A DNA stretch of 62,084 bases from a virus (lineage: Duplodnaviria; Caudoviricetes): positions 1 to 62,084 of IMG/VR virus record IMGVR_UViG_3300042504_002530; one strand, 5' to 3'. Below are positions 4,184-38,757 of the stretch, one piece after another. The notes under the pieces were generated by a model. It saw nothing but the letters and a program-made list of their open reading frames with translations. It ran no database searches and was not told the DNA's origin. The position numbers were made by a program, and so were the translations under genes. How positions within the stretch are numbered: the stretch's first letter is position 1; the number at the start of each line of letters is the position of its first letter.

Positions 4184-4373
4184 AGCCGGCGCTCCTGTCG
4201 TACAGGACGCTGTCGCCGTCCTTAACAGCACAGACTTCGTTGCCGACGCTGACGACCTTGGCCTCCCGGTAGCGGATGTCCTCGGCGTCCTTGCTTGACA
4301 TGGTTAGCCCGCTGCCGGTCTTTATCTCCCGGTGGACTTCTTCGGCGACGATGAACTTATTTATTGCTTTCAT
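4116..4373 (-). CDS. groS: Co-chaperonin GroES
   Basis: KTGSGL mobile loop, VVSVG, VKDGDxVLY, YLVILERDV; adjacent to GroEL. Confidence 0.9.
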   Translation of the reverse strand: MKAINKFIVAEEVHREIKTGSGLTMSSKDAEDIRYREAKVVSVGNEVCAVKDGDSVLYDRSAGFKLMIEGHQYLVILERDVVVVL

Positions 4374-5913
4374 TGGTAATAATTGCGTTTGTACCTAGAA
4401 GAGTGGCCGCTACGCTCGTAGCGCTGATGAGAGCGTTCTTTGTCACCTTGGCCGGGTCAATGACCCCCATGCCCATCATGTCGCCGTAGTGCATGCTCTT
4501 TAGGTCAAGCCCGAAGCCGAACGCGCACCCACGAATGTTCTGCTGGACCTCCAAGTCGTTTACGCCGGCATTCTCCAGAATCTGACGGAACGGAGCCATC
4601 AACGCCCGGCAGAACACCCTCCGGACACGCTCGATATGGCCCTCCTCCTCCATGACCTCATGGGCGATGTAGTTAAGCGCCACCCCTCCGCCGGGCAGTA
4701 CACCCTCGGCTAGCGCGCTACGCACGGCGCAGACCGCGTCATCAACCCGGTCATACAGCTCTTTCTGCTCCACGTCCGTATTTGCCCCGACGTAGATGAC
4801 CGACATGCCCCCCCGGAGGCTTGCAATTCTCTCCATAATAAACTCCCGCTCGTCCTTGCGCTCGGTATTCTTGTGCTGCTCCCATAGTTCTTTGACCCGC
4901 CCGTCAACTTTAGCCGCGTCCAAGTCCGGCCGGACGATGATGGTTTCCTCCCGGCCGACCACGATGCGCTTAGCAATGCCTAGGTCCGTGACCTGAGCGA
5001 TGCTCAAGTCGTCACCGGTCTGCTCGCTGAAGTACTTGCCCCCCAACATGAAGGCAATGTCGCCCATCTGCTCATGCCGGCGCCACCCAAACGAGGGAGG
5101 CTGCACCACGCAGAACTTCAACCCGTTCTTCACCACGTTCGCAGCAAGGGTCATCTGCACCGCGTCGGAGCAGTCCGCGATAATCACCAACGGCTTACCG
5201 CTGTTGATGACCGGCTTGAGCACGTTCTCAATGCTCAGGATGTTGTTGATGGGCGTATCGGACACCAAAACATACGCGTCCTCCAGAATACACTCGTCTT
5301 TCCGTTGGTCGTTGACGAACATCCGGTTCGTGTACCCCCGCTGAAACCGCATGCCAGTGGTTGTCTCCACATAAGTCGTCTGCCCCTGCGAACGCTGCAC
5401 CGTGACAATGCCGTCAGCGCCCACATTCTTGTACGCCGTGGCAATAATCGCCCCAATTTGCGCGTCGTTGTTCGCGCTAATCGTCGCAATGGCCTCCAAA
5501 GACGACAATTTCACCTTCTTGGACAACTTGTCAATGCGCTTAGCCACCTTGTCAGCCATGCCGGTCAGCAACTTGGCCTCACTCAGCGTCAACCCCTCCT
5601 CAATACCACCTAAAGTCATCGCTTCAGCAATGACCACCGCCGTCGTTGTGCCGTCGCCGGCCATCGTAGCCGTCCGGTCCGCCGCCTGACGCATAATCCG
5701 TACCGCCATATTCTCCACCGGGTCGCTCAAAGTGATGGAACGGGCCACCGTGACGCCGTCTTTCGTGACCGTCATGCCCCCAATGTGCTCCGGAGATTCC
5801 AAAATAACCGTGTTACCGCACGGACCCAGAGTGCTCTTCACCGCACCCGCCATTTTTTTGATTCCTGATGCCAAGCCTTGCCTCGCGTCAGCTCCTAAAG
5901 TGAGATTTTTCAT
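4357..5913 (-). CDS. groL: Chaperonin GroEL
   Basis: VKSTLGP, TKDGVTVA, AGDGTTTA, GVLPGGG, GVIDPAKV motifs. Confidence 0.97.
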   Translation of the reverse strand: MKNLTLGADARQGLASGIKKMAGAVKSTLGPCGNTVILESPEHIGGMTVTKDGVTVARSITLSDPVENMAVRIMRQAADRTATMAGDGTTTAVVIAEAMTLGGIEEGLTLSEAKLLTGMADKVAKRIDKLSKKVKLSSLEAIATISANNDAQIGAIIATAYKNVGADGIVTVQRSQGQTTYVETTTGMRFQRGYTNRMFVNDQRKDECILEDAYVLVSDTPINNILSIENVLKPVINSGKPLVIIADCSDAVQMTLAANVVKNGLKFCVVQPPSFGWRRHEQMGDIAFMLGGKYFSEQTGDDLSIAQVTDLGIAKRIVVGREETIIVRPDLDAAKVDGRVKELWEQHKNTERKDEREFIMERIASLRGGMSVIYVGANTDVEQKELYDRVDDAVCAVRSALAEGVLPGGGVALNYIAHEVMEEEGHIERVRRVFCRALMAPFRQILENAGVNDLEVQQNIRGCAFGFGLDLKSMHYGDMMGMGVIDPAKVTKNALISATSVAATLLGTNAIITNESNK

Positions 5914-6130: not shown

Positions 6131-6290
6131 ATGTCGATTTTTTTTCTCCCTATACTCTCTATATATATTCTTATTTTAGATTTCTTCCCAAAAAATCATA
6201 GGAAAAAAATCGTCATAATCTATCAGTAGCTTGATAATCAGCGAGAAAAATTGGCTCAAAATCGTCATACGCTGCCAGATTTTCGACATT
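6131..6290. repeat. Dispersed ~150-bp AT-rich repeat, copy 1 (origin-like)
   Basis: Co-linear similarity with 18894-19050, including identical AAAAAATCATAGGAAAAAAA and CG(A/T)CAT iterons. Confidence 0.7.
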
Positions 6291-6672
6291 TGGGGGTTAG
6301 AAACTTGGAGTAAATGGGTTATCTGAGCCGTTCCGCGCGTCCGTCCGCGTGCGCAAGCACCCCCGCCTGCACGTTGGGGGGTGTTGTATCTTGTGTTACA
6401 TGACGATTTTTTGCCGATTTTGCGCCGACCATACCAACCCCTAAAGGGGTGGTAAAGTACGCCGAAATGGGGCGTTTTGGGCCGACCGAGAGAGGGGTCG
6501 TGTGATGCGCGTTTCCGCCCGAGCATAATGCCCGCGCCGAAAGAGTGGGTGTTTGAACACCCCTCGTTTTGGTCTATACATCTTCGATGTATTGCTCCAT
6601 AACACATCTTACATCCTCCGTTCCCCACCTCTACACCTTCGGTGTAAGCTCCATATACCTTCGGTATATGCT

Positions 6673-6714
6673 CCGTAACACAACTCAAACAAGCCGTAAC
6701 ACAATTCAAACAAG
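6673..6714 (+). repeat. Tandem 21-bp repeat CCGTAACACAAYTCAAACAAG x2
   Basis: Read directly. Confidence 0.9.
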
Positions 6715-7092
6715 CCCCAAATGACACGCCGTGTACGCGTACCCGCCTTGGCGGTTCTTCAAGAACCGCCGCGCAGTGTCCGAAGGACACCGCCCGACCC
6801 CGCGACACCCCCGCGTTACCGCGCCGCCGCCTTGGTATCCCCTTCGGGATACCGCCCGTAGCCCAAAAAACGCGTCACGCTTAGGCATAATGCGTAATCC
6901 CCCCACATTTCGCGTCATCCCCAAATGATACGCGCGCGGTGCTTTCGTCAACTGCTTGATTTTCAGCGCCTTTGCCGAAATCAAAATGTGGATAACTTTT
7001 TTCACCCCCTAACTTGCTGATTTTGAGCCGTTTACATACTCACCGAAAATTTAATTTGACCCTGTTGGGCTGCATTCGGATTTTGCCGTTTA

Positions 7093-7100
7093 TACCTTTG
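7093..7100 (+). promoter_or_regulatory. Bacteroidota sigma-A -7 element (TACCTTTG), first early promoter
   Basis: Matches TAnnTTTG; precedes the structured RNA and the early gene arm. Confidence 0.65.
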
Positions 7101-7634
7101 CATCGCCGACTGACAGCAAACTGACCTCGGCTCCCCACGATACAGACTACCTTGGTAGTCATTGTGGATTACTTGTGACCTACTAAAGTAGGGGTGACAG
7201 CCCAAAACAGAGAGGACAAGGAGAGGTCATAATTTCTAATTATGATGTCGGATGCTTCGTAGTGGTTCCTTACGGAAAGGAACTTAGGGTAGCCGCCTAT
7301 TTCGTGGCTGAGGAATCCCGCACTCCGCAAAAACGGGAACAGGGCAAGGTCAAGCCAAGATTGACCCCGAAGGGGACTGCGACAAAGCAGACCCTACCTT
7401 AAAAAGGTACTTCGGCGAAGGGAAAAGGACAAAACTCCTACGGAGTAAAACCCGATTCCTTACTATGTAACGGCTTTGGTAACACAAAGTATTCCAACCG
7501 AAGGTTGCATAGTGAGGGGGTGGCGCAGACCGAGTTCGTCTAAAAGCCCGATGTGAGCGCTAGAGCCACGAAGATAGAAAGCAGGTTACTAACTATTGGC
7601 CACCCCGAAGGGGTGAAACTTCGGGATTGGTCAA
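7101..7634 (+). ncRNA. Large structured ncRNA candidate (~530 nt), class unknown
   Basis: No credible ORF; more than 12 hairpins and nested long-range helices with G-U pairs on the + strand. Confidence 0.7.
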
Positions 7635-7696
7635 GGCAAAGTACAAGGCAAAGGGGTGTTCAAACACCCCTTGGGGTTCGACTCCCCACTTTGCCA
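7635..7696 (+). ncRNA. tRNA-like element 1 (62 nt; acceptor + T arm, palindrome hairpin in place of the anticodon arm)
   Basis: GGCAAAG/CTTTGCC acceptor stem, TGGGG-TTCGACT-CCCCA T arm, discriminator A. Confidence 0.8.
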
Positions 7697-7764
7697 CAAT
7701 GCCCCGTTGGGGGGCTAAAGCCCCAACAAACCCTTTTTTTCAACGCCATAAACCCTAAAAAATC

Positions 7765-8376
7765 ATGGCTACATTATCCCCCATCGCTCAAATCGTCCGT
7801 TCCAACGCCCAAGTTGCAGAGCAACTCAAGGTCAAGGAAATTCGCACCGTTCTCGCTTCAATAGAGAGCGGTAAACAGAAAGTGTTTACCAAATCGATTG
7901 AACAGGCCCGTCTTTTGGCTAACGCCAAAGAGTGGTTCAACTCCAACAACTCGCTCTGTAAAGAGCGAGGCATTACTTGGAAGTCAATTTTGTCCGATAT
8001 ATTCGGTTTTACCGAATCGGCTATTGAATCCAAGTGGCCCAACCAACTACTGAAAGTAGGGGATGTGACCAATGAACAACTCGAAGAGTTCGTCAAGTGG
8101 GCACAATCCAACGACAAGTCGTTGTCGGTCAAGCAGTTGTACCTTTGGCTGAAGGGCGAAACCGAAGAGACCACCGAAGGTGGTGCTGAAGGCGAAGAAC
8201 AAGCGCCAAAGGCGCAGTGTGTGTGCAGTTGGACGTTCAAACTCCCACTTGTTGGGCAGGGTGAGCGTAATGTATCGGTGAGCATTGACACCGAAGGTGT
8301 TGTCAAGACCTCCAACACGGAGGACGAGTTGCGCCTTGCATACGAAATGATGGGCAAGGCGCTTGGCCTTGCATAA
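7765..8376 (+). CDS. First early protein, unknown function
   Basis: 203-aa ORF with A-rich initiation region, followed by palindrome hairpin and T-tract. Confidence 0.85.
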   Translation: MATLSPIAQIVRSNAQVAEQLKVKEIRTVLASIESGKQKVFTKSIEQARLLANAKEWFNSNNSLCKERGITWKSILSDIFGFTESAIESKWPNQLLKVGDVTNEQLEEFVKWAQSNDKSLSVKQLYLWLKGETEETTEGGAEGEEQAPKAQCVCSWTFKLPLVGQGERNVSVSIDTEGVVKTSNTEDELRLAYEMMGKALGLA

Positions 8377-8453
8377 GAGAAACCGACCGACGGGGGGGGT
8401 GTTCGAACACCCCTCCCTTTTGTATTTCATTCAACCCTTAAAACCCAACCAAA

Positions 8454-11413: not shown

Positions 11414-11450
11414 GAGTGCCGAGGGGGGTGTTCGAACACCCCCCTTTTAT

Positions 11451-11532
11451 AGTCGGGTCATTCGGTGGATGCGTTGTGCCTTTTTTAGGGTTAGGTGGTG
11501 CGCATTTGCGGGTTCGACTCCCGCCCCGACTA
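11451..11532 (+). ncRNA. tRNA-like element 2 (no D stem or anticodon loop)
   Basis: AGTCGGG/CCCGACT acceptor stem, GCGGG-TTCGACT-CCCGC T arm, central GATGCG/CGCATT hairpin. Confidence 0.8.
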
Positions 11533-24861: not shown

Positions 24862-24984
24862 CGTCAGGTGGCGGAATTGGCAGACGCAAGGATTATCTGA
24901 AATAAGAAAACGGTGTTGGTATGTGTAAAAAATACACCCGTAGAGAAGTCCCCCAACGTACAGGTTCGAATCCTGTCCTGACTG
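24862..24984 (+). ncRNA. tRNA-like element 3 (Leu-type D arm, long irregular arm instead of anticodon)
   Basis: GTCAGG-TGGCGGAATTGGCAGACGC ... ACAGG-TTCGAAT-CCTGT-CCTGACT-G. Confidence 0.8.
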
Positions 24985-25072
24985 CAAGGAGTGTCAACCC
25001 TCAAGTGCTGGGCAATGAAAATTGTCAGATGAGCCCATCAAAGTTGATGACACCTCGGAAAGACGAGGACAT

Positions 25073-25167
25073 AGTCAGGTGGCGCAATTGGCTAAACGCT
25101 ATACCGTTTACGGTTAGAGGCAAACGGAAATAAGTCCTTCTTACAGGTTCGAATCCTGTCCTGACTG
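25073..25167 (+). ncRNA. tRNA-like element 4
   Basis: AGTCAGG-TGGCGCAATTGGCTAAACGC ... same T arm and acceptor as element 3; different central arm. Confidence 0.8.
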
Positions 25168-25190
25168 CAAACAAATTAAAAACAAAACAA

Positions 25191-27041: not shown

Positions 27042-27931
27042 TAAAATCGGGTGCAACGAGTGACTTCGGCGTAGATGTACCGGACAAAGTCGCTCCGCGC
27101 GTCGCGCTCAATGCTCAGCTTCAGCCAATAGCCTCCTAGAGGCTTCGGGCCTCTTCCGCGTTCAACGTGAAAGCCCATTTTGCCATCGTCCCACTCTTCC
27201 TTGTACGTCGCCGTGCGTATTTGTTGCACAGGCTTTTGCTTAATCTTTTTAAAGCGAGGTTGATACCTGTTTACAATGTTGGTGTGTTCGTATAACTCAT
27301 GGACGTGGCCCATCCATGTCATGTCATAGTTTTCGATGGAGGCAAGCAGGCGTTGGTCTTGGATGACGCCTTTCGTTACCGGGCCGCCACCGCCTGAGCC
27401 GTGGAAATAGTGAATGATGTAGGACAAGTTGTTCCGGTGCGGCTCGTCCTCCTTGAGTGGCATCCACGCTAGGTTCACATGAAATACGCCTCCATATCCC
27501 CCTAATTGCACGTTGCTCTTGCAAGCGTAGTTGAGGGTCGCCACAAAACGCTCGAGGATGTCCGTCTCTTTGTGCTTGATGACGCCGGTTTCGTGGTTGC
27601 CGTAGCCTACTAGAACGATGTTCTGAGCGTATGGCTTAAACCAATCAACCGCCGTGTCAACAATAGAGTCAAGGTAGCGTCCGTTATTGTGCTCTGGGCG
27701 AATGTCGTCTTTGCTGGCCCGGAAATCGCCTTTGCCTTGCATGGCGCAGAACAAGTCCCCATTGATGATAATGTAAGCCCCCCTCTTGACGGCTTCGTCC
27801 AAGTGGTTTTTCAGGAGTTGCCGGTCGCAATGGGGGTTGTCCCAATGGAGGTCAGAAATCAACAGAAATTCAACTTCTCCATACGCCTCAAAAACGTGGA
27901 TGTTTGAACTTATTCTCGTAATGTTTGTCAT
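27038..27931 (-). CDS. Calcineurin-like metallophosphoesterase
   Basis: SDLH, NGD, GNHE, HG, GHVH motifs. Confidence 0.9.
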   Translation of the reverse strand: MTNITRISSNIHVFEAYGEVEFLLISDLHWDNPHCDRQLLKNHLDEAVKRGAYIIINGDLFCAMQGKGDFRASKDDIRPEHNNGRYLDSIVDTAVDWFKPYAQNIVLVGYGNHETGVIKHKETDILERFVATLNYACKSNVQLGGYGGVFHVNLAWMPLKEDEPHRNNLSYIIHYFHGSGGGGPVTKGVIQDQRLLASIENYDMTWMGHVHELYEHTNIVNRYQPRFKKIKQKPVQQIRTATYKEEWDDGKMGFHVERGRGPKPLGGYWLKLSIERDARSDFVRYIYAEVTRCTRFY

Positions 27932-30900
27932 TCTTCGAATTTAAAGTCTTCTTCAAAGGTAAAGTCCTCAGCCTTTTTTTGCTTTTTTGGGGCGCCCTTT
28001 ATGGTGTATTCGCTGTAATTGAAAAGCCTCAACATAGCCTCACCAAAATCGTCAACATCGCCAGTTGCTACCTTATACCAGTTCTGTGACAACTTAAAGA
28101 GCGTAGCCGCAGGTATGCCGGACAATTCGCTAAGAAGAAGGGAGAACTGAACGATGTGCTTGTTCCTTGTTTCATCGGTCTTGGCATCAAAAATAGCCTT
28201 TCCTTCTTTGGCTAAGTCGGCGATAACGCTAAAAGCTGATATACTCGTTGTATCATCCGCCCAAGGTTTGCCAAGGGCGATGTCTCGAATTTTTTGGAAA
28301 ATATCACCAATAACGAATATTGCGTTCAAGTTACCAAGAACTCCGGCCCATATCAACTCCTCGTCATCGTCATCGTCAAAGTCCGTGAGTATCCCGGGTA
28401 AGCCAAGCATAAGATATTGGAACAGGACCGGAGCGACCAAGTGAACGGTCACAAAGAGTCTTATGTTTTGCCCTAGCGTTCCCTTCGCGCCGCTAAGCCC
28501 CATCAGCTGCTTGTAGATGTTCCGAATGGCGTACATTTCCAAGCGGAAGTATTGCTTTGGCTGAGATTGGAACACCCCAAACATTCTCCATGCCGTAGAG
28601 CCCGTCTGGAAAAAGTCTTTATCTTCAACGTCATTACTTTGAGCAACGGACTTAACCTGAGCCTCAATTTTCTTGAGCGCGTATTTGATGGCGTCCTGTT
28701 CGGAAACCTTTTTCTTGGCTGCTTTTTGCTTATTGATATACTGCTCTTTGTAGAACAAGTAATTTGGAACGCTACCCATAACACCGGCCTTGTCACCTTG
28801 CTTGATGAAGTACATCATGACATTCGCGTAGTTATCAATGGATAGCCCTTTGTCCCCTCCAAGAACAACGTCTCTCTTGGAGTCCGAAAAGGTGGACATT
28901 ATCTCCATAATATTTGAAGTTGAAAACCTCGCTTTCAAATACTCTGAGTTCTCCATCATTTCGGCCCAAGTTTTGTAAGCCGTAGACTCTTTGCCCTTTC
29001 TTAAATCAGAGAATACTCTAGTGGCGTATTTAGCATAAGAGCCATATCCAATGAATGGAATAAACCCTACAAAACTGCTTGCCTGAGCGAGCATGATTTT
29101 TGGGTTAAGGCCAAGTTTCGCGTAAACGAAAGTCTTAAACCCGGCGTCAAGAATGTCATTCTCTTTTCCTTTCCCGAAGCCATCCGTGATAAGCCTATCG
29201 GTCATCATGTTCAATAGGCTGTAAATGTCCTTGCCGACACGGGTTTCAATCGCCTTACGAATCGTGATGTTGTTCAGCATCTTCTTGATGTCGCGAATTG
29301 ACTCAGCGTAAGACGCAAAGAAATTCATGTCGCGTACATAAGACGTGAGCACTTTGTCGCCGTCCATTGTCTTGACGGCTTTGTTGTTTCTGACGCGCTC
29401 TTTCGTTGATGCTCCCCCGACCGCTGTGATAAATTCGCTGGGCTTCTCAAGTAGACTTGGCGCCTCCTGCCCATCGGCGGATTCCCGGTACAACCGGCCG
29501 GCATAAAACTGATTCCAAGGCAAGTCGGTGCGATAAACACGGCGATAAACCTCGTTGTAAATCGGGTACATATTTGGGTAAAACTCTTCAACCTGCCAAT
29601 CGGCCCACTCTTTCACCTTCGGGTCAAGCTTCGATGTTATTTCAGCCATTATCTCCTTGTACTGGGGACCGAACTTTGTTTCAAACCCGGGGTGATTGGC
29701 GGCGTCTTTGTACTGATTATACAGATAGTACATTTCGTTCTGGCTGATAGGCGCTTCATTCTGAAGCAAGAACGCCTGCATAGCGACCTTATCGCCGGTC
29801 TTCAAGACCTTTTGATACCCCTTGGGGTCCATTATGTAGGTGAACTTCTTCTTGCCGTTTTGAATCATTATCTTCTTCCAGCCCTTGCCGAAGATTTGCT
29901 CGGCGTTGGTTTGGAGATACGCCATTGCTTCGTTGTTCAACTTGTTTAAGTTTGCGCGAGATTCACGCACTCGGTCAACGATAAGTTTTTTACTGACACC
30001 ACCGAAAAACTCGCCCGTCATGTTTGATATTCTATCGACAAGACCGGCAAGGTCTTCTGTCCGCCTTAGCATAGCGCCAATGGTATCATCTACAAATGAG
30101 CGAAGAGCCTTCCCGAAGGAACGCTGTTTTTCCTTTTGGACCGACTCACCCATAAGTGCTCTCTCTACCTTATCAACGGCTTTCTTGTCGCTGAAATTGA
30201 CATTGTAATCGCCGCCGGTGATGTCCTTGAGGAGCTGCCTCTTGAGCTTGTTGTAGTACTCTGATTGCGCCTTCAGTTCGTCCTTGAACGCTGCCCGCCC
30301 GGTCTTGAGAAAGTCCTTCATGTAGGAATACAATTCATCAAGAGCAATGAGTTTGTTTTCCTCAATGTCATCCATGAGCATCGTGGCCGCAAACTTCAGC
30401 GCGAACTCAACATCGGCAAGGTCTTCGGCGTACTCGTCCTTCCCTTCGTCAATAACCAACTCGGTAAGCCGGGTGTACTCGGAGTTCAATGCGACAATGG
30501 CTTTTTGAATTTCTTCTACGGATGCTTTTTCATCCGGCAACATCCCTTTAATCTTAGCGATTCGCTCCTGCATGGCCGTGCTGAATTTGCCCTTTACCCT
30601 ACCGCCTTCCTTCTTGGTGGTTTCAGCGGCAAGCTGCTTGAGCAACTTGGCCCTCGTAGCGCGCACTCTGACGCCAATCACAAAGTCAGCGACCTCTCGG
30701 CGAATCTCGGCGATGTTCTCGCGATTTGCTGAGGATACCTTCTTCAGCAAAGCCATCACCTCAGCCTTGGCGTACATCGTCCTAGGCAGACTTGACTTGA
30801 TGAGTATGGTTAACTGCCTCCTGATTTCGTTCAGCTCACGGGCGCCCTTGTTGATGTTACGCATGGCCTCACGAATGCGCTTCATCTGCGCTTGAATAGC

Positions 30901-33900
30901 CGTGTTCGCCGTGGTGTTCAGCGTTGCGTCAAGGTCAGCCATAAGGCTCATTTGCAGGTAATCCGACGACGACAAGAACAAAGGATGCTTGGACAGCTCT
31001 TGCATTGCGAACTCCCGGATTTTTGCGCTCGATGGTTTCTCTCCGTTGACTTCCTTTTTCGCAAAGCGCCGTATCTTCTGCTGAACATTGGTGTACATGC
31101 TGTACCCGGCGAAAGCGCCGCCCTCGACCATTGTAAATGCGCGTGGCAATTTCTCCTTATCACCGACGTTAATCGCCATTGCCTCATTGATGTCCGAGGA
31201 TGAATAGCCCTCCTGCTGCATTCTCCGCTTAATCTCCCCGTCTGTCAAGCCCTCGTTTCTTGCGTCGTTTATTGCGCCATACAAAGTTTGGTCGTTCTCT
31301 GGAACTCGAGAAAAACGAACGTCCGTGTCTTCGTTTGGTTGAAAGCCGGCAAACCTAATGGTCGTTTCAAGCAATGCCATTGGAAACTCACGATTTGCTT
31401 GAGCGACGGCTTCAACAAATCCGGCTGTTTGCAAAAGTCTTTTCTTCTGATTTTTTTCTAAATCCTTTTCAGATATTGGGTTGTTGTCGAGATATTTTGA
31501 AAGGCTTTTTGGCTCGCTTGGAAATACCGCTTTTTTCCCTTGAGAGTATTGGTAGTTAATAAAAGCATCTGGATTGACATTTTTAAAAGGAATATCTGTA
31601 AGAAATGTTTGGCCTTTTTTAACGGATGGATAAATCATTCCACCTTTCATTGGAACATAAACGCTTTGACCATCTTCATTCATTATTACACCCGAAAACG
31701 TCTTATTCTTTTGGTCCACATAAGTTATTTTGATTAAAGCATCATCGTATTTGCTAAGTCCTCCATCTAATTCAACGAAGCTTCCCTGCTTAATCCCAAA
31801 TAACACATTTGGTTTTATTTCGGGTATGTTTGAGTCTTGTATACCATAGTTTTCGTTGATATAATCAATAATTTTTTTGGTTTGTTCGTTGATATATTTT
31901 GACGCCGATTCATCATACTCGATTCTAAACCTGCCCTTTTTTAATTTAATACCTAACTCATTGTAGAGCACCATTTCTTTTTGCCTCTCTATTGATTCGC
32001 TTAGATTGCTTTCCACCATGGCATCTAGCACGCTATTCGTTACCGATGGATATGAAGAGAATCCGGGATATGTCAACAAAGAAACGCCTACCCTGCTGCC
32101 GGTCTTTTGTGGAGAAAAAACTTTTGATAGCGACACTTTTCCGGCAGTAGTCCCAGCAGTCCCGGTATACGCATCGCCTTTTGATGCGAAAATTATATCC
32201 TCGGGATTCGGATATAAGGCAATTCTTACCCCGCTTGCATAAAAACTAGACCAGTTTTTTCCTTCTGAATTTATAGGGAGGCTAGCAAGTTTTGTTAAAC
32301 AGGACAGAGAATACTCTCCACCATTTTGCTCTTGCAAGTCTAAAAATCTCCCAATATTTTGTATAACGGCTGAAAAATCAATATTCTTTGACATACCCGT
32401 CATCATGTAATGATAGAATCCGTAGCCTCTATCGTAAGCCTCTTGTGGGTCGTACTTGATGCCGTATTCTTTTTTCCAACTCTCAAGATATTGTTTTGAG
32501 TTTGAATACTCTTCTTCTGCTTGATAGTAATCTCTTAAATTTTTAGCAAGATTGATTATGCTCCATCTAGGGTCCGCATTAGCGTCTTGATTGAAGGGGT
32601 TGGAGAAATTCTTGTCATATCTTCTTCCGTTAAAGCCTAGCAATATTTCACCCGTTTCAACATCCGTAGCCTCCCAGTAAGGTTTTTCTGCGTTCTCAAT
32701 GAGATTAAAATCAATAGTCCTTCCGGATACCGAATCGTAATACCTAAAGTTCTTTACGTTTTTCAGCTCTTCCTTTATTAATTCATCAATATCACCAATC
32801 CGGTGTATATTCGTTTCAGTAATTCGTCTAAAGATTAACTTCTTTATCTTACTCCCAAGCGTCGGGTTAGACGGGAACTCTAAAGTTGCAGCCGCTCCGG
32901 CTCTTGCCATGTCTTGCTTAACTTCTTCAATGGAAGCGTATGTTTCTCCCGACGGAGTTCTATAACCAATTTCTGTTCCGGGCAATGCAATAAGGTTTTC
33001 TCCATACCCCATTATATCTGCTAAGTCTTGAATCGTAGTTGTTGGCTTCAATTCTCCAATCTTTATCACTTCCTTTCCAAGCAGTTCCCTTACATATTCA
33101 CTGACAAAATTCCAAAGTTTCTCAAGCAACATTCCAAGACTTGACTTCTTGTCAAAACTTTCGCTTGCAAGTTGTCCAAGTAATGTTACCAACGCCTCCT
33201 CAATTCTTTGGTCTTCAGTTAGTTCTGGATATAGTTGTGACACCATGTTGTATGCAGCAATGCCTTCGGGGCTATTTTGCATTTCCTTTACAAGGTTGTC
33301 ATATAGCTCCCTTGAACTTTCGCTTCCGCTCTTCAACGCATAAATAATAGGGTGCGCAAGAATTTCGTGAAAAGGCGTATCTTTTGATACAAAGCTCAAA
33401 TTTATTGTTACGCTATGCGTTGTTGGGTTATATTTACCCCTGTAATTCTCTAATGGCTCTGATACAAAATCGACATAATTAAGCCCTATTCTCCAAGCCA
33501 ATTTACCAACCAATGTGCGAACGGCTAGCTCATCGTTTCTATCGATGACCTTTGGTCTTTCAGAACCATCAACCTTCTGCCTCATCGCAAACATCTTCTG
33601 GCGAATCTTCTCGGCTCTTTGCTCAATCGACAGCTTCTCGTCGTTGAATGCAGGGATACCCGACTTAACCTTCTCAACGATTTGAGGAGTAATGTCTACT
33701 GAGCGTTGCTTGGATGTGGATGAATCAGCTCGACGTTCCGATTCTTTGCGTTCTTCATAGATTTGTTTAATTGCGCCAATAGTGTGTGCTCTTTTTGAAT
33801 CAAGAATGTGAATATCATTCACGGCATCGTGCATAGCTTCAATGTCAGTTCCGGCCTTAAAGTATTTCTTAAAAGCCCCCTCTATACCATCAAAGTATTT

Positions 33901-36900
33901 ATCATGAGCAATACTCATTTCTTTACCGGTCAAGATTTCTTTTGCTTCTGATAAATATTTAGCTTTAAGATATGGAGCAACGCCTTGTACGGCTTCATCA
34001 ATCTCTTTTTCAATACGCTCAATTTCTTCTTCCAAATTAACATTTGCATTCGCAGCAGTCACTTTTGCCTCAAAAGGAGCTAAAGTTAGTTCTGTCGTTT
34101 TTGCCTCTAGTTTTTTCCCGGTTATTTCTTCAATAAGGGCTTGCATCACCTCTTCAACTGTTCCGGTTTTTCCTTCATCTATTGAGCCATAAAAAGCAAC
34201 CATAGCTTTACCACGAACACTTGATTCTAAGTCTAAACCACGCAACAGTATACGTCCGTCGCTTTGTTTTTCGCCGTCTCCATTTATGATTTTTTTTGAA
34301 ATTTCATCTCCAACGGCTGCTTGTAATTGATTCTCTTGAAAAGGATAGTCCTCAATAATGGGATTTCCACTCTCATCGGCTGCATATATTTTATACCCAG
34401 AGTCGGTTTTTGTATATAATATAAAACTTATTTTGTCGGATAGATTATATCTAGCATTCTGTTGTTCCCCTGTTGTCCATGCTACTTTTGTTACATTTTT
34501 TTTAACAGCTTCTTGTAAGGCGACTTTTAAAGCCAACTTCACCCATGCGCTGGTGTTGTCAACGTATGGGGCGGAAACTACATTTGGCGTATAGTTTGGG
34601 GTTTCCTTTTGTTTTTGTCGTTCCTTTCTTATATGTTGCGCTAAATCGCTTTGCACTTCCTCAATAAACAATACTTTATTGCCGTCCTTGTCTTTCCTGA
34701 TAACATATCTTAAATGAGCGATAGTTTTGTCAGTATAATGACTATTAAAATCAAATGAATATGGAAAATTGGCGTCATCCCATTCAATGATTATCTCTTG
34801 ATATTCACCGCTCTGCTCTTCTGTTAAGCCTCCAAACTCTTTGTCTTTGTCTTTTTGTACGCTAATCTTGACGCGATTTTTCTTAATGTAATCAAGCAGC
34901 TCTTTCTTTTCAACCTGCTCGTCAGGACGCTTGGCTTGAAGGAACGCTCTTGCACCGGTGAACTCTCCTTCATCGCCACCAAAAATTCCACTCTGCAACC
35001 ACTTGGTTGCACTTTGCTTTTCAATCGTTGATGTAAGTAGTCGCCGTTCAATAGTTGAATAAAAACCTTTGACAACTTTTAAACCACTAGGCAAGTCTGT
35101 GCTTCTCGCTTGACGCACAATCTCTTTCTCTTTTTCTGTGAGCTGACCCGTCATGTAAGCCACGAAGTCCGAGCGCTTAAAGTCGGTGACTTTTGAGCCA
35201 ATATAATCTGCCGCTTTCTCAACAGCAGCGGATACATTTTCTCCGGCCTCGATTGCAAGAATCGCTGAGTCAATAGCGAAATTCCACACGCTTTTACCCA
35301 TACCAGCCCCAAAGCTGTTCATCGTTCCGATGTCGGTCCTCATGCTCTTGAGCGAGTCCTTGATGGCCTTAATCTTGTCGGTCTTAATCTTCGGCAACGG
35401 GAGGGGTGTTCGGACACCCATTGTGCTTGGACCGCCAAGCAGCAACGCCATACCTCTTGAGTATGCGTCGTCAATCTTGGCTTGGTCTTCCAATAAATAA
35501 ACATCGCCGCTCTTCGTGTCCTTCGCGTACACAGGCTTGCCATCCTTCATGGCAGTCGTAGCCGCTTCAAGTTGCGACTTCGGGCGCACGGCTATATTGG
35601 CGATGTCTTTGTTCTCCACCTTGTCCGCCGGCACAGTAACCTCATGCCGGCCGGTTTCTTCATTGAAGACCGCTTCCGGCCTGAACTCCGCCGGAATCTC
35701 ATTGATGTCTTCAGCGGCAAGCATAACCTTGCCGTCCTCGTAATCTTCTTTGTCAAAGATTGACTCCATCCGGGTGACGTACTTATCCAATAGCTCTTCA
35801 TCCCCTTCAATGGAGATATTCAAGTCCTTGATTTCCTCGTCTGACGCTTTTGTTGGGTCTAAAAGAGCCGTTACATCTTCACGCAACGATGCCTTCCCGT
35901 CAATGTAGTACTTTGGTGTAAGACCAATGATTGGCGCCAAGTCCACGCGCTGCTCGGGAATCTTTTTGTTCTGAAGGATGTAGTTCATTTCATCCTGAAC
36001 GACCTGCTGCATGGGTTGATTAATCGTTGGCGTTCTGTCCAACTGCCTCTTTGCCGCAATCAAGTCTGCTAAGCGGGACTCGGCACGACTGCTAGTGCCA
36101 AGCGCAAGCTGCGACAACCGTTGGGCGTTTGTTGGAGCCGTTGTCGACATCATCTGCCGGGCCTCTCTGACCACAGACACATTCTCGAGAATCTGCTGCT
36201 CGGTCACGCCGGTAATCTGACCGGTCGTCCGCATGTTGTTCGTCCATTGAGTGACCTTGCCAAGGTCTTCGTCCATGTCGTTGAGAAACGAACGGCTATT
36301 GGCCATTTTCTCAGCGAGGTTTGTATAGTAATCCTTTCGGGTCTGTTGGTACACCACGTCGGCAAGGGTGAGCGGGTTGCTTGACATACCGCCGGCCCCG
36401 AGCGCTTCACCAAGTATCTCAATAGAATTTAACTCTTGGCCTGACACGAACTGAGCCGCCGCTTCACCAAAAGCCTCCGATACCGGTTCAATAGCCAAAG
36501 CCTGACCGGCAGCCTGAGTCGTCCTGCGAGCCGTTGACGCAAGCGAAGACGGCGCTATTTTGCTGAGCATCCCGGCCGTAATGGCGTCAACAGCAGCAAT
36601 GGTCAATCCGCGCTTTACGCCGATGTTTCTAGCCTCTTCCCATATCTCAGGGTCGTTAAGCCATTCGCCCTCTTGGGCTTTCTCGAGCGTGTTGTATTTT
36701 TCGCGGATGGCCTCAAGAACAGACGCCGTGTACTCTAGCGAAAAACCGCTAGCGGCATTGGCGATTTTCATACCAGCGGAGAAACCGGACCTAGCGCCCG
36801 GAATAGTACCAACACCCGTAAAACTACCAACAACCGCGCCGGTAGCTGTTGACACAGGTATAATTATTGAACCCTGCTTCCATAAAATCGGGAACATCCG

Positions 36901-38757
36901 GGCCATAGAGTTTAATGTCATATTTGCTACGCCCGAAATAAACGTCGAAGGATTTGCCCCAAGAGCGCGCAAATAATCACCAAACTCTCCTGACTCTGTC
37001 GCTTCGGCAATTCTTTCCTGACCAACCGACATCGCCGTTGATATAGCCGGGTCGTTCATCATTTTGAACATCTGCTCGTTGTATATCGCAAGCTTTTCCT
37101 CATCGCCTGCAATCTTTGCGGCTTGCGCATCTAAGACCACGTTTGACATCTTTCCCTCATTCCACCCAGAGCGAATGGAGTTCAATAATCCTTGCCATTC
37201 ACCCACATACTTATCTTGGGCCTCCTTGTCGTATTTGGCATCAAAATAAGTACGCTCTTTGAGATATACCTGAGCCGCTTGCTTTTGCCGTTGAGCTAAA
37301 AGGTTGTAGGCGTCAATGGATTCGTTAAACACCCTCGCCGAAGCTGCATCAGATGGCTTGACATTTTTGATTTCTGGATTGATAGTTCCATCCGGATTCA
37401 GAAACGGAACGCCAAAATAGTCGTTGAATTTCTGATTGAGATTTCCCTGAATAGTTTTTACTTCACGATTCAGGGCAATAGCTTGTCGTTCGGCCTTCTT
37501 GCGCTCTACCTCAAGTTGCCGGTCGGCCTCCTGACGAATGCTGGACAATGACTGAAAATAATCCTCTATGGAATCTTTCTGTTTGCGCTTTTCGTCAAGG
37601 ACTTTCTCTAAACCATCAACGGTCCCTACGCCGTAAGCCTTCTTCATCTTAGCGGCTAGTCGAGTCTTTTGGGGCTCAAGCCCCGGGCGATTGGAAGACA
37701 AAATATCAATAGCATCTTCTAGGCTATTAATTTCTTCACGACTATACTTTCGCTCGAGCTCGTTCTGCTTCATTACCCCGTACTCAATGCCGTTCTGCTC
37801 CGCTACTTGTTTGCGCGTCAAGTCGCCTTGGTTAATACTCTTCCACGAACCTTTCGCAAAAGACTCCGCCTGTACCTTGGTGTCAAACTGATACAACTCG
37901 CCTCTCCGAACCGCTTCCTTAAAAGCCTCGTCCGGATTCTTGTACTCAAGCCAATCATTCGGGTCGGACGATTGAGAATTTGGTGTCTTTTGGTATAAGG
38001 TTGGAACAGCGTAATGTTTGCCGTCAACCTCCATAGTCGTAAATAAATGGGTTGAGCTAGTTCCGTCAGGATTAATCCGGGCGGCCGGCCTTGTTTCCTG
38101 AGCCTTTAATGATAGGTCAACAAACTCCTCGTTTTGGTACTGCGTTTTTTTGGCGTTTTTTGCAATAAATCCTTTCAGCTTATCGGCCGCCTGCGCTCCA
38201 TCGCCGTACAAATCAACCTCAATGTTTCCGCTACTGCTTCGGGCGACATAGTTGCCCATGGGTGTCAAATCAAAAGAAAACCCGTACTTCCCGTAGTTCT
38301 TCTTCAGCTCATCCAAGACGCGCTCCTTCTTCCGAAGACGAGCCGTAGCATCATATCCAAACGCATTGGTTTCGCCCGGTACGTCTTTGGTCATATTCAA
38401 GATTGACCCGCTAATCATAGCGAGCTCAGACAATGGGACTGACACCATTTCCTCGGCCGGTTGTGCATCCGATTCCTCGCGATACTTTGCCGCCGCACCG
38501 GTGGCCAGTTCTTCAGCGAACTGCTCTCTAAACGCTTCGGTTTTTGACTTGATTTGCTCAGAGAACTCAGGCGTTAGAAGTTCCTCGGTTTTGAGCTCTA
38601 GTTCTTCACTCGGAATGGCAGCGGCCTCCGATGCCAAGTACGGAGTCTTGGCTTGCTGTTGTGCTCTGTATATGGCATTGAGGTCAACTTTAACAGCGCC
38701 CTTCACGGGCTCTGCTTGCTTCAATGCCCGTAAAAGGTCATTCTGCTGTTTAGCCAT
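27928..38757 (-). CDS. Giant (3609 aa) virion/ejection 'polyvalent' protein
   Basis: Follows the internal-virion genes; contains LFIEEVQSD module and HEILAH zincin-like motif; helical C-terminal region. Confidence 0.8.
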   Translation of the reverse strand: MAKQQNDLLRALKQAEPVKGAVKVDLNAIYRAQQQAKTPYLASEAAAIPSEELELKTEELLTPEFSEQIKSKTEAFREQFAEELATGAAAKYREESDAQPAEEMVSVPLSELAMISGSILNMTKDVPGETNAFGYDATARLRKKERVLDELKKNYGKYGFSFDLTPMGNYVARSSSGNIEVDLYGDGAQAADKLKGFIAKNAKKTQYQNEEFVDLSLKAQETRPAARINPDGTSSTHLFTTMEVDGKHYAVPTLYQKTPNSQSSDPNDWLEYKNPDEAFKEAVRRGELYQFDTKVQAESFAKGSWKSINQGDLTRKQVAEQNGIEYGVMKQNELERKYSREEINSLEDAIDILSSNRPGLEPQKTRLAAKMKKAYGVGTVDGLEKVLDEKRKQKDSIEDYFQSLSSIRQEADRQLEVERKKAERQAIALNREVKTIQGNLNQKFNDYFGVPFLNPDGTINPEIKNVKPSDAASARVFNESIDAYNLLAQRQKQAAQVYLKERTYFDAKYDKEAQDKYVGEWQGLLNSIRSGWNEGKMSNVVLDAQAAKIAGDEEKLAIYNEQMFKMMNDPAISTAMSVGQERIAEATESGEFGDYLRALGANPSTFISGVANMTLNSMARMFPILWKQGSIIIPVSTATGAVVGSFTGVGTIPGARSGFSAGMKIANAASGFSLEYTASVLEAIREKYNTLEKAQEGEWLNDPEIWEEARNIGVKRGLTIAAVDAITAGMLSKIAPSSLASTARRTTQAAGQALAIEPVSEAFGEAAAQFVSGQELNSIEILGEALGAGGMSSNPLTLADVVYQQTRKDYYTNLAEKMANSRSFLNDMDEDLGKVTQWTNNMRTTGQITGVTEQQILENVSVVREARQMMSTTAPTNAQRLSQLALGTSSRAESRLADLIAAKRQLDRTPTINQPMQQVVQDEMNYILQNKKIPEQRVDLAPIIGLTPKYYIDGKASLREDVTALLDPTKASDEEIKDLNISIEGDEELLDKYVTRMESIFDKEDYEDGKVMLAAEDINEIPAEFRPEAVFNEETGRHEVTVPADKVENKDIANIAVRPKSQLEAATTAMKDGKPVYAKDTKSGDVYLLEDQAKIDDAYSRGMALLLGGPSTMGVRTPLPLPKIKTDKIKAIKDSLKSMRTDIGTMNSFGAGMGKSVWNFAIDSAILAIEAGENVSAAVEKAADYIGSKVTDFKRSDFVAYMTGQLTEKEKEIVRQARSTDLPSGLKVVKGFYSTIERRLLTSTIEKQSATKWLQSGIFGGDEGEFTGARAFLQAKRPDEQVEKKELLDYIKKNRVKISVQKDKDKEFGGLTEEQSGEYQEIIIEWDDANFPYSFDFNSHYTDKTIAHLRYVIRKDKDGNKVLFIEEVQSDLAQHIRKERQKQKETPNYTPNVVSAPYVDNTSAWVKLALKVALQEAVKKNVTKVAWTTGEQQNARYNLSDKISFILYTKTDSGYKIYAADESGNPIIEDYPFQENQLQAAVGDEISKKIINGDGEKQSDGRILLRGLDLESSVRGKAMVAFYGSIDEGKTGTVEEVMQALIEEITGKKLEAKTTELTLAPFEAKVTAANANVNLEEEIERIEKEIDEAVQGVAPYLKAKYLSEAKEILTGKEMSIAHDKYFDGIEGAFKKYFKAGTDIEAMHDAVNDIHILDSKRAHTIGAIKQIYEERKESERRADSSTSKQRSVDITPQIVEKVKSGIPAFNDEKLSIEQRAEKIRQKMFAMRQKVDGSERPKVIDRNDELAVRTLVGKLAWRIGLNYVDFVSEPLENYRGKYNPTTHSVTINLSFVSKDTPFHEILAHPIIYALKSGSESSRELYDNLVKEMQNSPEGIAAYNMVSQLYPELTEDQRIEEALVTLLGQLASESFDKKSSLGMLLEKLWNFVSEYVRELLGKEVIKIGELKPTTTIQDLADIMGYGENLIALPGTEIGYRTPSGETYASIEEVKQDMARAGAAATLEFPSNPTLGSKIKKLIFRRITETNIHRIGDIDELIKEELKNVKNFRYYDSVSGRTIDFNLIENAEKPYWEATDVETGEILLGFNGRRYDKNFSNPFNQDANADPRWSIINLAKNLRDYYQAEEEYSNSKQYLESWKKEYGIKYDPQEAYDRGYGFYHYMMTGMSKNIDFSAVIQNIGRFLDLQEQNGGEYSLSCLTKLASLPINSEGKNWSSFYASGVRIALYPNPEDIIFASKGDAYTGTAGTTAGKVSLSKVFSPQKTGSRVGVSLLTYPGFSSYPSVTNSVLDAMVESNLSESIERQKEMVLYNELGIKLKKGRFRIEYDESASKYINEQTKKIIDYINENYGIQDSNIPEIKPNVLFGIKQGSFVELDGGLSKYDDALIKITYVDQKNKTFSGVIMNEDGQSVYVPMKGGMIYPSVKKGQTFLTDIPFKNVNPDAFINYQYSQGKKAVFPSEPKSLSKYLDNNPISEKDLEKNQKKRLLQTAGFVEAVAQANREFPMALLETTIRFAGFQPNEDTDVRFSRVPENDQTLYGAINDARNEGLTDGEIKRRMQQEGYSSSDINEAMAINVGDKEKLPRAFTMVEGGAFAGYSMYTNVQQKIRRFAKKEVNGEKPSSAKIREFAMQELSKHPLFLSSSDYLQMSLMADLDATLNTTANTAIQAQMKRIREAMRNINKGARELNEIRRQLTILIKSSLPRTMYAKAEVMALLKKVSSANRENIAEIRREVADFVIGVRVRATRAKLLKQLAAETTKKEGGRVKGKFSTAMQERIAKIKGMLPDEKASVEEIQKAIVALNSEYTRLTELVIDEGKDEYAEDLADVEFALKFAATMLMDDIEENKLIALDELYSYMKDFLKTGRAAFKDELKAQSEYYNKLKRQLLKDITGGDYNVNFSDKKAVDKVERALMGESVQKEKQRSFGKALRSFVDDTIGAMLRRTEDLAGLVDRISNMTGEFFGGVSKKLIVDRVRESRANLNKLNNEAMAYLQTNAEQIFGKGWKKIMIQNGKKKFTYIMDPKGYQKVLKTGDKVAMQAFLLQNEAPISQNEMYYLYNQYKDAANHPGFETKFGPQYKEIMAEITSKLDPKVKEWADWQVEEFYPNMYPIYNEVYRRVYRTDLPWNQFYAGRLYRESADGQEAPSLLEKPSEFITAVGGASTKERVRNNKAVKTMDGDKVLTSYVRDMNFFASYAESIRDIKKMLNNITIRKAIETRVGKDIYSLLNMMTDRLITDGFGKGKENDILDAGFKTFVYAKLGLNPKIMLAQASSFVGFIPFIGYGSYAKYATRVFSDLRKGKESTAYKTWAEMMENSEYLKARFSTSNIMEIMSTFSDSKRDVVLGGDKGLSIDNYANVMMYFIKQGDKAGVMGSVPNYLFYKEQYINKQKAAKKKVSEQDAIKYALKKIEAQVKSVAQSNDVEDKDFFQTGSTAWRMFGVFQSQPKQYFRLEMYAIRNIYKQLMGLSGAKGTLGQNIRLFVTVHLVAPVLFQYLMLGLPGILTDFDDDDDEELIWAGVLGNLNAIFVIGDIFQKIRDIALGKPWADDTTSISAFSVIADLAKEGKAIFDAKTDETRNKHIVQFSLLLSELSGIPAATLFKLSQNWYKVATGDVDDFGEAMLRLFNYSEYTIKGAPKKQKKAEDFTFEEDFKFEE

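Follow-up and report, generated by a model that had tools for sequence, protein, structure and literature searches.

We analyzed the whole IMG/VR record IMGVR_UViG_3300042504_002530 (hereafter the window; 62,084 bases, CheckV completeness 100%), which derives from a freshwater phage. A divergent gap of ~950 bp, which separates a block of minus-strand genes from the first plus-strand gene, is occupied by a large structured non-coding RNA of ~520 nt (7115–7634, plus strand) and, starting at the very next base, by a tRNA-like element of 62 nt (7635–7696, plus strand) with neither a D arm nor an anticodon loop. The structure of this tRNA mimic and its linkage to the large RNA are conserved in five further phage contigs, and the large RNA is represented in RNA libraries. 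We suggest that the mimic, together with a second element of the same build elsewhere in the genome, may act as a tRNA-like punctuation signal for host RNase P and RNase Z, in the manner of mascRNA or the t-elements, an interpretation that we consider about evenly balanced between right and wrong.

The mimic was delineated from the sequence, its predicted fold and its homologs. G7635 opens an acceptor stem of 7 bp (7635–7641, GGCAAAG, with 7689–7695, CTTTGCC), after which a linker of 9 nt, TACAAGGCA, containing a conserved GG (7642–7650), replaces the D arm. The linker leads into a central hairpin (7651–7672) with a 9-bp stem and a 4-nt loop, TCAA, and then into a T arm with a canonical T loop (GGGG at 7673–7676, TTCGACT at 7677–7683 and CCCC at 7684–7687), the stem of which could be extended by a fifth pair, U7672–A7688. 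The GG of the linker would be well placed to act as G18–G19 of the tRNA elbow. The discriminator is a purine, A7696, and since CA comes next, CCA is not encoded in the window element. The last helix of the large RNA closes at 7634 and the mimic starts at 7635, in agreement to the base with the first-pass annotation of this DNA, which had described a minimal tRNA mimic of 62 nt at the 3′ end of the large RNA; that description was borne out by the fold, by conservation and by covariation.

A stretch of 64 nt folds to exactly the tRNA-like shape, with a minimum free energy of −31.9 kcal/mol and a z-score of −4.8, and none of 200 shuffled sequences folded as well. The 7-bp acceptor stem, the T stem and the T-T-C-R-A-N-Y loop are those of a tRNA acceptor/T-arm domain. 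The canonical cloverleaf is not formed, as there is no D stem and the central arm has a 4-nt loop. ARAGORN called neither a tRNA nor a tmRNA at 7635–7696, and a gathering-score scan of the whole window against Rfam gave no tRNA (RF00005) match at this position. When 6500–8200 was searched with cmscan against all 4227 Rfam families (E ≤ 10), the element gave only matches below threshold: 27.0 bits with tRNA-Sec, the top-scoring family of the tRNA clan (cut-off 47), and 25.2 bits with mascRNA-menRNA (cut-off 42.5; E 0.024 over 1.7 kb of sequence). The latter score thus provides no evidence of homology to mascRNA. By these tests, the element is placed outside tRNA, tmRNA, mascRNA, YrlA, ROOL and GOLLD. 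Each of the determinants that RNase P recognizes is present in the element: an acceptor stem of 7 bp that stacks on the T stem, a T loop of canonical sequence, a G at position +1 and a purine as discriminator.

Related phage contigs were collected from IMG/VR and JGI metagenomes by searches with the neighboring GroEL-like and CobS-like proteins, and a covariance model, R1, was built from the window and the first homolog, L003 (the same contig as L007, L015, L016 and L022). R1 found the closing helix and the mimic at 109–130 bits in five further distinct contigs (L018, L019, L003, L025 and L021). In the resulting alignment, which was fitted to the model and whose six rows correspond to approximately three or four independent lineages, every one of the 192 pair cells contained a standard pair and 11 of the 32 pairs had changed on both sides: two in each of the two helices of the hairpin that closes the large RNA (both 100% paired), three in the acceptor stem and four in the central arm. 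The comparison of the window with L003 alone showed nine compensatory pairs out of 32 and no broken ones. As controls, sliding the partners by 1–3 columns left 40–57% of the positions paired, and none of 500 column shuffles matched the observed pairing or covariation score. The acceptor stem was found in the variants GGCAAAG/CTTTGCC, GGTAAGG/CCTTACC and GGTAAGA/TCTTACC. A G-U pair in the closing helix was kept in all six sequences, which identifies the plus strand as the RNA strand.

Outside the covarying pairs, the features of the mimic were strongly conserved. The T loop reads TTCGA[C/A/T]T and the four G-C pairs of the T stem are invariant in all six sequences, each of which also has a G at +1 and an A or G as discriminator. 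The linker follows the motif ACAAGG[C/A]A in the homologs, with ACAAGG and its GG invariant in six of six. CCA is encoded in two of the sequences (L025 and L021), and the other four read CAA. The tRNA-like part is more conserved than the large RNA. Co-occurrence in related genomes had been proposed in the first-pass annotation as a check on the association between the two, and the association held: the tail was present in all six contigs that bear the large RNA, no relative had the large RNA alone, and in each of the six, including L021, the tail abuts the last helix of the large RNA without a spacer.

A candidate tRNA-like element with the T loop TTCGACT scored 12.9 bits in a distant relative, L004, where it is located just before the homolog of the 203-amino-acid (aa) gene that follows the gap (27% identity, E 7e-5). 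The RNA upstream of this candidate is not alignable and folds no better than shuffled sequences (z −0.6), and on this z-score it was rejected as a homolog of the large RNA. Two other R1 matches in L004 (8792–8872 and 4648–4765) were discarded since they are located within coding sequence and have no T loop. A blastn search of the phage GenBank collection gave no match to 7000–7760, and three DNA patterns scanned over viral_contigs returned only one contig, which was already known. BLAST and R1 searches of five related virus records found none, which is a weak blank since a filter-free search later gave a 23-bit element in one phage, G002. With two contigs in IMG/VR and a handful in the JGI metagenomes, the large RNA family is rare, and it looks like an undescribed family.

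The large RNA itself was defined from its fold, its homologs and RNA contigs, and its 5′ end is approximate (7093–7115). The fold of 7100–7740 gave a z-score of −6.5. In the six-sequence comparison, the z-score was −5.25 for the large RNA of the window and ranged from −3.2 to −7.3 over all sequences, with none of 40 shuffles as good in each case. The RNA ends in a hairpin (7596–7634) that consists of a closing helix (7596–7602, TTGGCCA, with 7628–7634, TGGTCAA), directly abutting the acceptor stem of the mimic, and an inner helix (7606–7610 with 7619–7623). The middle of the large RNA shows low sequence identity among the six homologs. Several hairpins are kept through compensatory changes, for example one with the conserved loop GCCAAGA, and a MAFFT-based consensus structure of the whole RNA from the six sequences was reliable in a few helices only. 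Between a conserved upstream block and the mimic, the RNA measures 525, 530, 545, 569, 546 and 329 nt in the six sequences. The version in L021 is ~200 nt shorter than that of the window (329 versus 525 nt), and the large RNA is thus modular.

No Rfam family matched the large RNA in the search of 6500–8200 described above, nor did any match the five relatives at E ≤ 0.1. The ROOL model (RF03087), run alone over the whole record, gave no match, and the control genomes were likewise blank; GOLLD was covered only by the all-family Rfam scans (cmscan of 6500–8200 and the gathering-score scan of the whole window), which gave no match. The large RNA was inspected by eye for conserved motifs like those of RNase P RNA, with Rfam as the only tool test, and the idea was dropped, as a GAGGAA..CC stretch of the window is not kept in L003. 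At 7289–7336 of the window, L018 and an RNA contig (from run X1, see below) have a 65-nt replacement of 46 nt that adds an extra hairpin, and this segment is thus a variable domain.

Thirteen metatranscriptome runs from 13 studies, mostly of lake water, contained 0.04–0.32 of the sampled words of 7100–7745. Four runs (X1–X4) were compared as assembled contigs, from which neither the ends of the RNA nor its strand or level can be read. Run X1 gave one contig of 582 nt over 7093–7654 with the L018-type insertion, in addition to low-depth flank contigs at 6659–6939 and 8049–8365. Run X2 gave contigs over 7270–7585, run X3 one contig of 455 nt over 7115–7563, and run X4 contigs over 7164–7582. Contig cover was lacking for 7655–8040 in all four runs and for the flanks in X2–X4, neither of which can be read as absence. 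Four independent studies have the large RNA in their RNA libraries, and three of the four lack its flanks; this is a weak hint, and such libraries can include DNA.

The second D-armless tRNA-like element is located on the plus strand at 11451–11532, between protein genes and away from any large RNA. Its build is the same: an acceptor stem of 7 bp (AGTCGGG/CCCGACT), a 9-nt linker with GG, a central arm that is long and variable, a T arm with a 5-bp stem (GCGGG-TTCGACT-CCCGC) and a discriminator A. R1 scored it at 20 bits. ARAGORN labeled it tRNA-Lys; the anticodon stem is poor, and the score with the Rfam tRNA model is below the cut-off. Four pairs had changed on both sides in its homolog in L003 (~7479–7560). 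Since this paralogous element is intergenic, in an mRNA context, and shows compensatory changes, the module appears to work alone rather than being confined to the role of a large-RNA domain. A palindrome (11422–11445), followed by TTTTAT, precedes the element.

In the interpretation that we favor, one plus-strand transcript would start near 7100–7115 and comprise the folded RNA of ~520 nt, the 62-nt mimic, and a hairpin with a T-run. The mimic would retain only those features that are read by tRNA-processing enzymes, the features for decoding having been shed. Host RNase P would cut between A7634 and G7635, leaving the large RNA to end in its own closing helix, and RNase Z or exonucleases would trim after 7696, so that a tRNA-like RNA of ~62 nt is freed and the terminator trailer is discarded. 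The element at 11451–11532 would punctuate the early operon likewise. The cleavages, the enzymes responsible and any role of the small RNA after its release are inferred.

There are precedents for such processing. According to PMC4919922, tRNA-like structures on the 3′ side of MALAT1 and MEN-beta are the sites at which RNase P and RNase Z cut, with RNase P in vertebrates forming the 3′ end of the long RNA and RNase Z releasing the small RNA. Like mascRNA/menRNA (RF01684), the phage element is a small tRNA-like structure without a real anticodon loop at the 3′ end of a long structured RNA. The differences are that it is carried by a phage of bacteria rather than found in a vertebrate nucleus, that there is no upstream triple helix or A-rich end, and that the phage element lacks a D arm. 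The t-elements are truncated tRNA-like folds that serve as RNase P and RNase Z cleavage signals, setting the ends of neighboring transcripts rather than decoding, and the phage element at 11451–11532 sits between genes in a similar manner. In plant mitochondria they are a substrate of PRORP, according to PMC4919922. They belong to another kingdom and to other enzymes (a protein-only RNase P in plant mitochondria), and processing of the phage elements is a prediction. Bacterial RNase P substrates that are mentioned in the same source include OLE RNA and phage regulatory RNAs.

The modules of tmRNA and YrlA are also comparable. The tRNA-like domain of tmRNA and the YrlA modules are RNase P substrates, and a 7-bp acceptor stem matters for RNase P cleavage of the bacterial tRNA-like Y RNA, as stated in PMC4919922 and PMC4201824 for the former and in PMC4201824 for the latter. 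Like these, the phage element has an acceptor stem and a T arm and lacks an anticodon, the D stem being reduced or missing. Unlike in tmRNA, the 3-70 pair in the phage is C-G or U-A and not G3-U70, the acceptor strands are local, 47 nt apart, and ARAGORN finds no tmRNA. The element also differs from YrlA, as Rfam gave no match to YrlA or tmRNA and no Ro60/TROVE domain was found in the record (controls matched in two genomes). GOLLD and ROOL are complex phage and prophage RNAs of ~580–800 nt that have no known function and are often found beside tRNAs, according to PMC5737381 and 10.1101/2024.12.08.627333. The locus resembles them as a large complex non-coding RNA of a phage that is associated with a tRNA or tRNA-shaped module, and differs in that the tail is an armless mimic and not a real tRNA and in that there is no Rfam match to either family. 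Literature searches turned up no report of a large RNA from a phage or bacterium that ends in a tRNA mimic, which does not prove that none exists, and the supplementary motif lists of PMC5737381 could include this RNA.

Several observations weigh against processing by RNase P and RNase Z. The leader that RNase P encounters is normally single-stranded. Here, it is base-paired in the closing helix up to position −1, and being fully paired it could make cleavage inefficient. The T stem has only four invariant pairs, the fifth being U-A in the window clade and L025, U-C in L003 and U-G in L021. CCA is not encoded in four of the six sequences, and a search for a CCA-adding enzyme in the phage found none. 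The RNA evidence consists of the assembled contigs, with the limit on RNA ends noted above, and the X1 contig runs 20 nt past 7634/7635; since it crosses the junction, uncut molecules or contaminating DNA must exist. Finally, a complete relative, G001/L009, whose GroEL-like protein is 77% identical, has neither RNA at the syntenic site, from which it follows that the large RNA and the mimic are dispensable in the group.

The mimic could instead stay attached in cis, where it would serve as a tRNA-shaped handle for tRNA-binding machinery (a CCA-adding enzyme, an elongation factor, the ribosome or modification enzymes), comparable to viral 3′ tRNA-like structures and to the tRNAs of GOLLD, or would protect the 3′ end. 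The contiguity of the closing helix with the acceptor stem, with no spacer and with coaxial stacking possible, is what such an arrangement would look like, and the X1 contig spans the junction. GOLLD and ROOL phage RNAs are moreover found near tRNAs, which are sometimes located in the GOLLD linker (10.1101/2024.12.08.627333 and PMC5737381). We nevertheless consider permanent attachment somewhat unlikely: the second element of the same build has no large RNA beside it, a candidate element is retained in L004, where no large RNA can be aligned, and both acceptor strands are local, so that nothing shields the element from RNase P. That the RNA contigs stop by 7654 also points away from attachment, weakly. 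Another proposal, which overlaps with the interpretation that we favor, is that the released small RNA is the functional product, its position after the large RNA only ensuring its transcription. It would act as a decoy for a protein that recognizes the acceptor and T arm, for example a host tRNA-targeting defense nuclease or a modifying enzyme, or for a protein that binds the palindrome from which the central arm is formed. Two paralogous armless elements per genome and the higher conservation of the tRNA-like part agree with this proposal, as does the arm of the window clade, which evolves in concert with the palindrome family (loops TCAA, TTGA and TTAA). So does the arm of a three-way element in G002 and its relative L026, which is that phage's own, different palindrome; this element, however, has no canonical T loop, and its homology is doubtful. 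The arm is not the recurrent palindrome in three of the six homologs, the loop is not conserved, and at least 7 of the 19 palindrome sites in the window are terminator-like. No candidate binding protein was found, and the proteins flanking the RNA locus have no family match. On balance, we regard this proposal as improbable.

A decaying tRNA gene, or the core of a tRNA-derived attachment site, with no function at the RNA level, would be a further explanation. It is common for phages to have tRNA genes and to use such genes as integration sites, and contig L040, from a Bacteroidales metagenome-assembled genome (MAG), has a stretch that closely resembles the element in its 3′ half. The acceptor stem and the arm, however, have compensatory changes on both strands, which show that selection acts on RNA pairing. 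The T loop and the linker GG do not vary among the six sequences, and no tyrosine integrase was found in the phage, serine recombinases having been outside the search. A relic of this kind is therefore hardly credible. At the other extreme, the locus might be the first prokaryotic counterpart of MALAT1-mascRNA, in which a new large phage RNA is matured by RNase P, the mimic and its paralog act as decoys for a host factor or defense enzyme that binds by the acceptor/T-arm shape, and the arm has been homogenized with terminator hairpins by gene conversion in one clade. This combination we consider quite improbable.

The palindrome bears directly on the decoy proposal. A copy of an 18-bp palindrome, GGGGTGTTCAAACACCCC, at 7653–7670 forms the central arm of the mimic. 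With at most two mismatches, the family has 34 strand matches in the window, counted as 19 distinct sites, where none are expected from 100 shuffles. The first-pass annotation had identified the central arm with this recurrent palindrome, which is correct for the window, L018 and L019 and does not extend to L003, L025 and L021; the palindrome in the mimic is clade-specific. In the former three, the loops are TCAA, TTAA and TTGA, two of which are reverse complements of each other, and the loop differs even among relatives whose GroEL-like proteins are 98–99% identical. These loop variants look like the result of DNA-level exchange with other copies of the palindrome. The sister clade (L003, L025 and L021) has the arm AGGACAG..CTGTCCT or AGGACGGC..GCCGTCCT, reached via compensatory changes, and keeps the GGTGT..ACACC palindrome family elsewhere in its genomes.

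Runs of T follow at least 7 of the 19 sites, just 3′ of plus-strand genes, and one site was called terminator-like by the scan. Examples of palindrome sites are found at 8396, 10108, 12156, 13191, 13583 and 18867; by position, those at 9366, 17218, 22152 and 22947 fall inside listed open reading frames (ORFs). The set looks like homogenized intrinsic terminators, and because of the T-runs at these sites the palindrome appears to be mainly a terminator hairpin of the phage. The copy in the mimic is followed by TTGGGGTTCG and has no T-run, and does not constitute a terminator hairpin. The first-pass annotation was supported in part: the mimic and its link to the large RNA were borne out, and the RNase P cleavage at 7635 that it had inferred is a prediction. 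Its further proposal, display of the palindrome by the released RNA as a decoy or ligand, found no support as a conserved function, because the sister clade keeps the palindrome elsewhere and has a different arm; the loop also varies, and at least 7 sites are terminator-like.

GOLLD- and ROOL-type phage RNAs are abundant and linked to tRNAs, and are still without a function. The present locus is a compact and conserved case, in which a large phage RNA is joined to a tRNA-shaped module exactly to the base. The prediction of cleavage at 7634/7635 is precise, and lake metatranscriptomes already show the RNA. Should the cut be made, 3′-end formation by a tRNA mimic would extend beyond vertebrate nuclei and organelles, the element would be a minimal natural substrate of RNase P and RNase Z that lacks the D arm and the anticodon loop, and a new family with no Rfam match would be added to the few large RNAs known from bacteria and phages. 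Should it not be made, a covalently attached tRNA mimic would be informative about the use of tRNAs by GOLLD-type RNAs.

The regions that flank the two RNAs are consistent with a single transcription unit, and the order in the primary transcript is likely to be promoter, large RNA, mimic and terminator-like trailer. An upstream control region (6957–7114, plus strand) contains three GATTTT..GCC..TTT repeats (at approximately 6957, 7018 and 7078, in the region 6957–7103) directly upstream of the large RNA, as well as a DnaA-box-like site, TGTGGATAA, read from the sequence at 6988–6996. The repeats and the DnaA-box-like site may represent a replication origin or an operator region. The same DnaA-box-like sequence occurs in L003, and the syntenic region of L009 also has TTATCCACA. 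The block at 7066–7114 is nearly invariant in all six homologs and unique within the window, and it ends in TACCTTTG, which fits the consensus of the Bacteroidota-type −7 box and may be a promoter box of this kind. A sigma-70 scan found no promoter.

Downstream of the mimic, the trailer (7697–7755, plus strand) is almost invariant, being nearly identical in the six sequences although the RNA upstream has diverged. It contains a hairpin (7706–7712 with 7721–7727) and a run of seven T (7734–7740), and is likely to be terminator-like, ending before the start of the 203-aa gene at 7765. It was passed over by a strict terminator scan, since 6 nt separate the stem from the start of the T-run. Long-range pairs between the core of the large RNA and the trailer, suggested by RNAalifold, rest on invariant columns and were not used. 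A 19-codon frame from the ATG at 7699 was rejected as coding since an indel in L025 and L021 shifts the frame.

In the wider genome, the minus strand carries the structural genes, including those for the portal, the large terminase and virion proteins, as well as an ORF of 3609 aa (27928–38757, minus strand) with no family match and no PHROG match at E ≤ 1e-5. A module for replication and recombination is located on the plus strand, from ~7.7 to 27 kb, and encodes a CobS-like AAA ATPase, DUF7192, a Sak-like annealing protein, an exonuclease, a primase/helicase and a helicase. The minus-strand block beside the gap includes a 210-aa ORF (6176–6808) and the GroEL-like gene (4357–5913), and the first plus-strand gene after the gap is the 203-aa gene (7765–8376). 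The 203-aa protein had no close relatives in viral_contigs, a search with an alignment of three homologs gave one already known contig only, and in the protein atlas it matched hypothetical phage clusters only.

Other tRNA-like sequences were also observed. The window contains two paralogous long-arm tRNA-like genes (24864–24985 and 25073–25168; acceptor GTCAGG../..CCTGAC, T arm ACAGG-TTCGAAT-CCTGT). ARAGORN called the one at 25073–25168 as a UAA-reading suppressor (anticodon tta), and it scored 32.7 bits with the Rfam tRNA model. The one at 24864–24985 has an insertion of ~50 nt and was called by neither ARAGORN nor the Rfam tRNA model. The three-way element was detected by R1 in G002, a more distant complete phage whose GroEL-like protein is 62% identical, and in L026 (L017 3195–3295, minus strand, 23.1 bits; L026 2806–2917, minus strand, 16.2 bits). 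It consists of a 7-bp outer stem around two hairpins, one of which is the phage's own palindrome, GGTGTACTTGAGTACACC. The second hairpin lacks the T-loop consensus, and the element follows rather than precedes the homolog of the 203-aa gene, so that a relationship to the mimic is doubtful.

A pattern scan of bacterial genomes gave eight elements with a hairpin plus a T arm, none of which was called a tRNA by ARAGORN: L035, L038 and L039 from Alphaproteobacteria, L036, L037 and L042, and L040 from the Bacteroidales MAG among them. The stretch in L040 has no clear 5′ acceptor strand. Three of the eight are mini tRNA-like elements of ~75 nt with G3-U70, two of which (L038 and L039) have sub-threshold matches to tmRNA, and three of the eight are located directly after a real tRNA.

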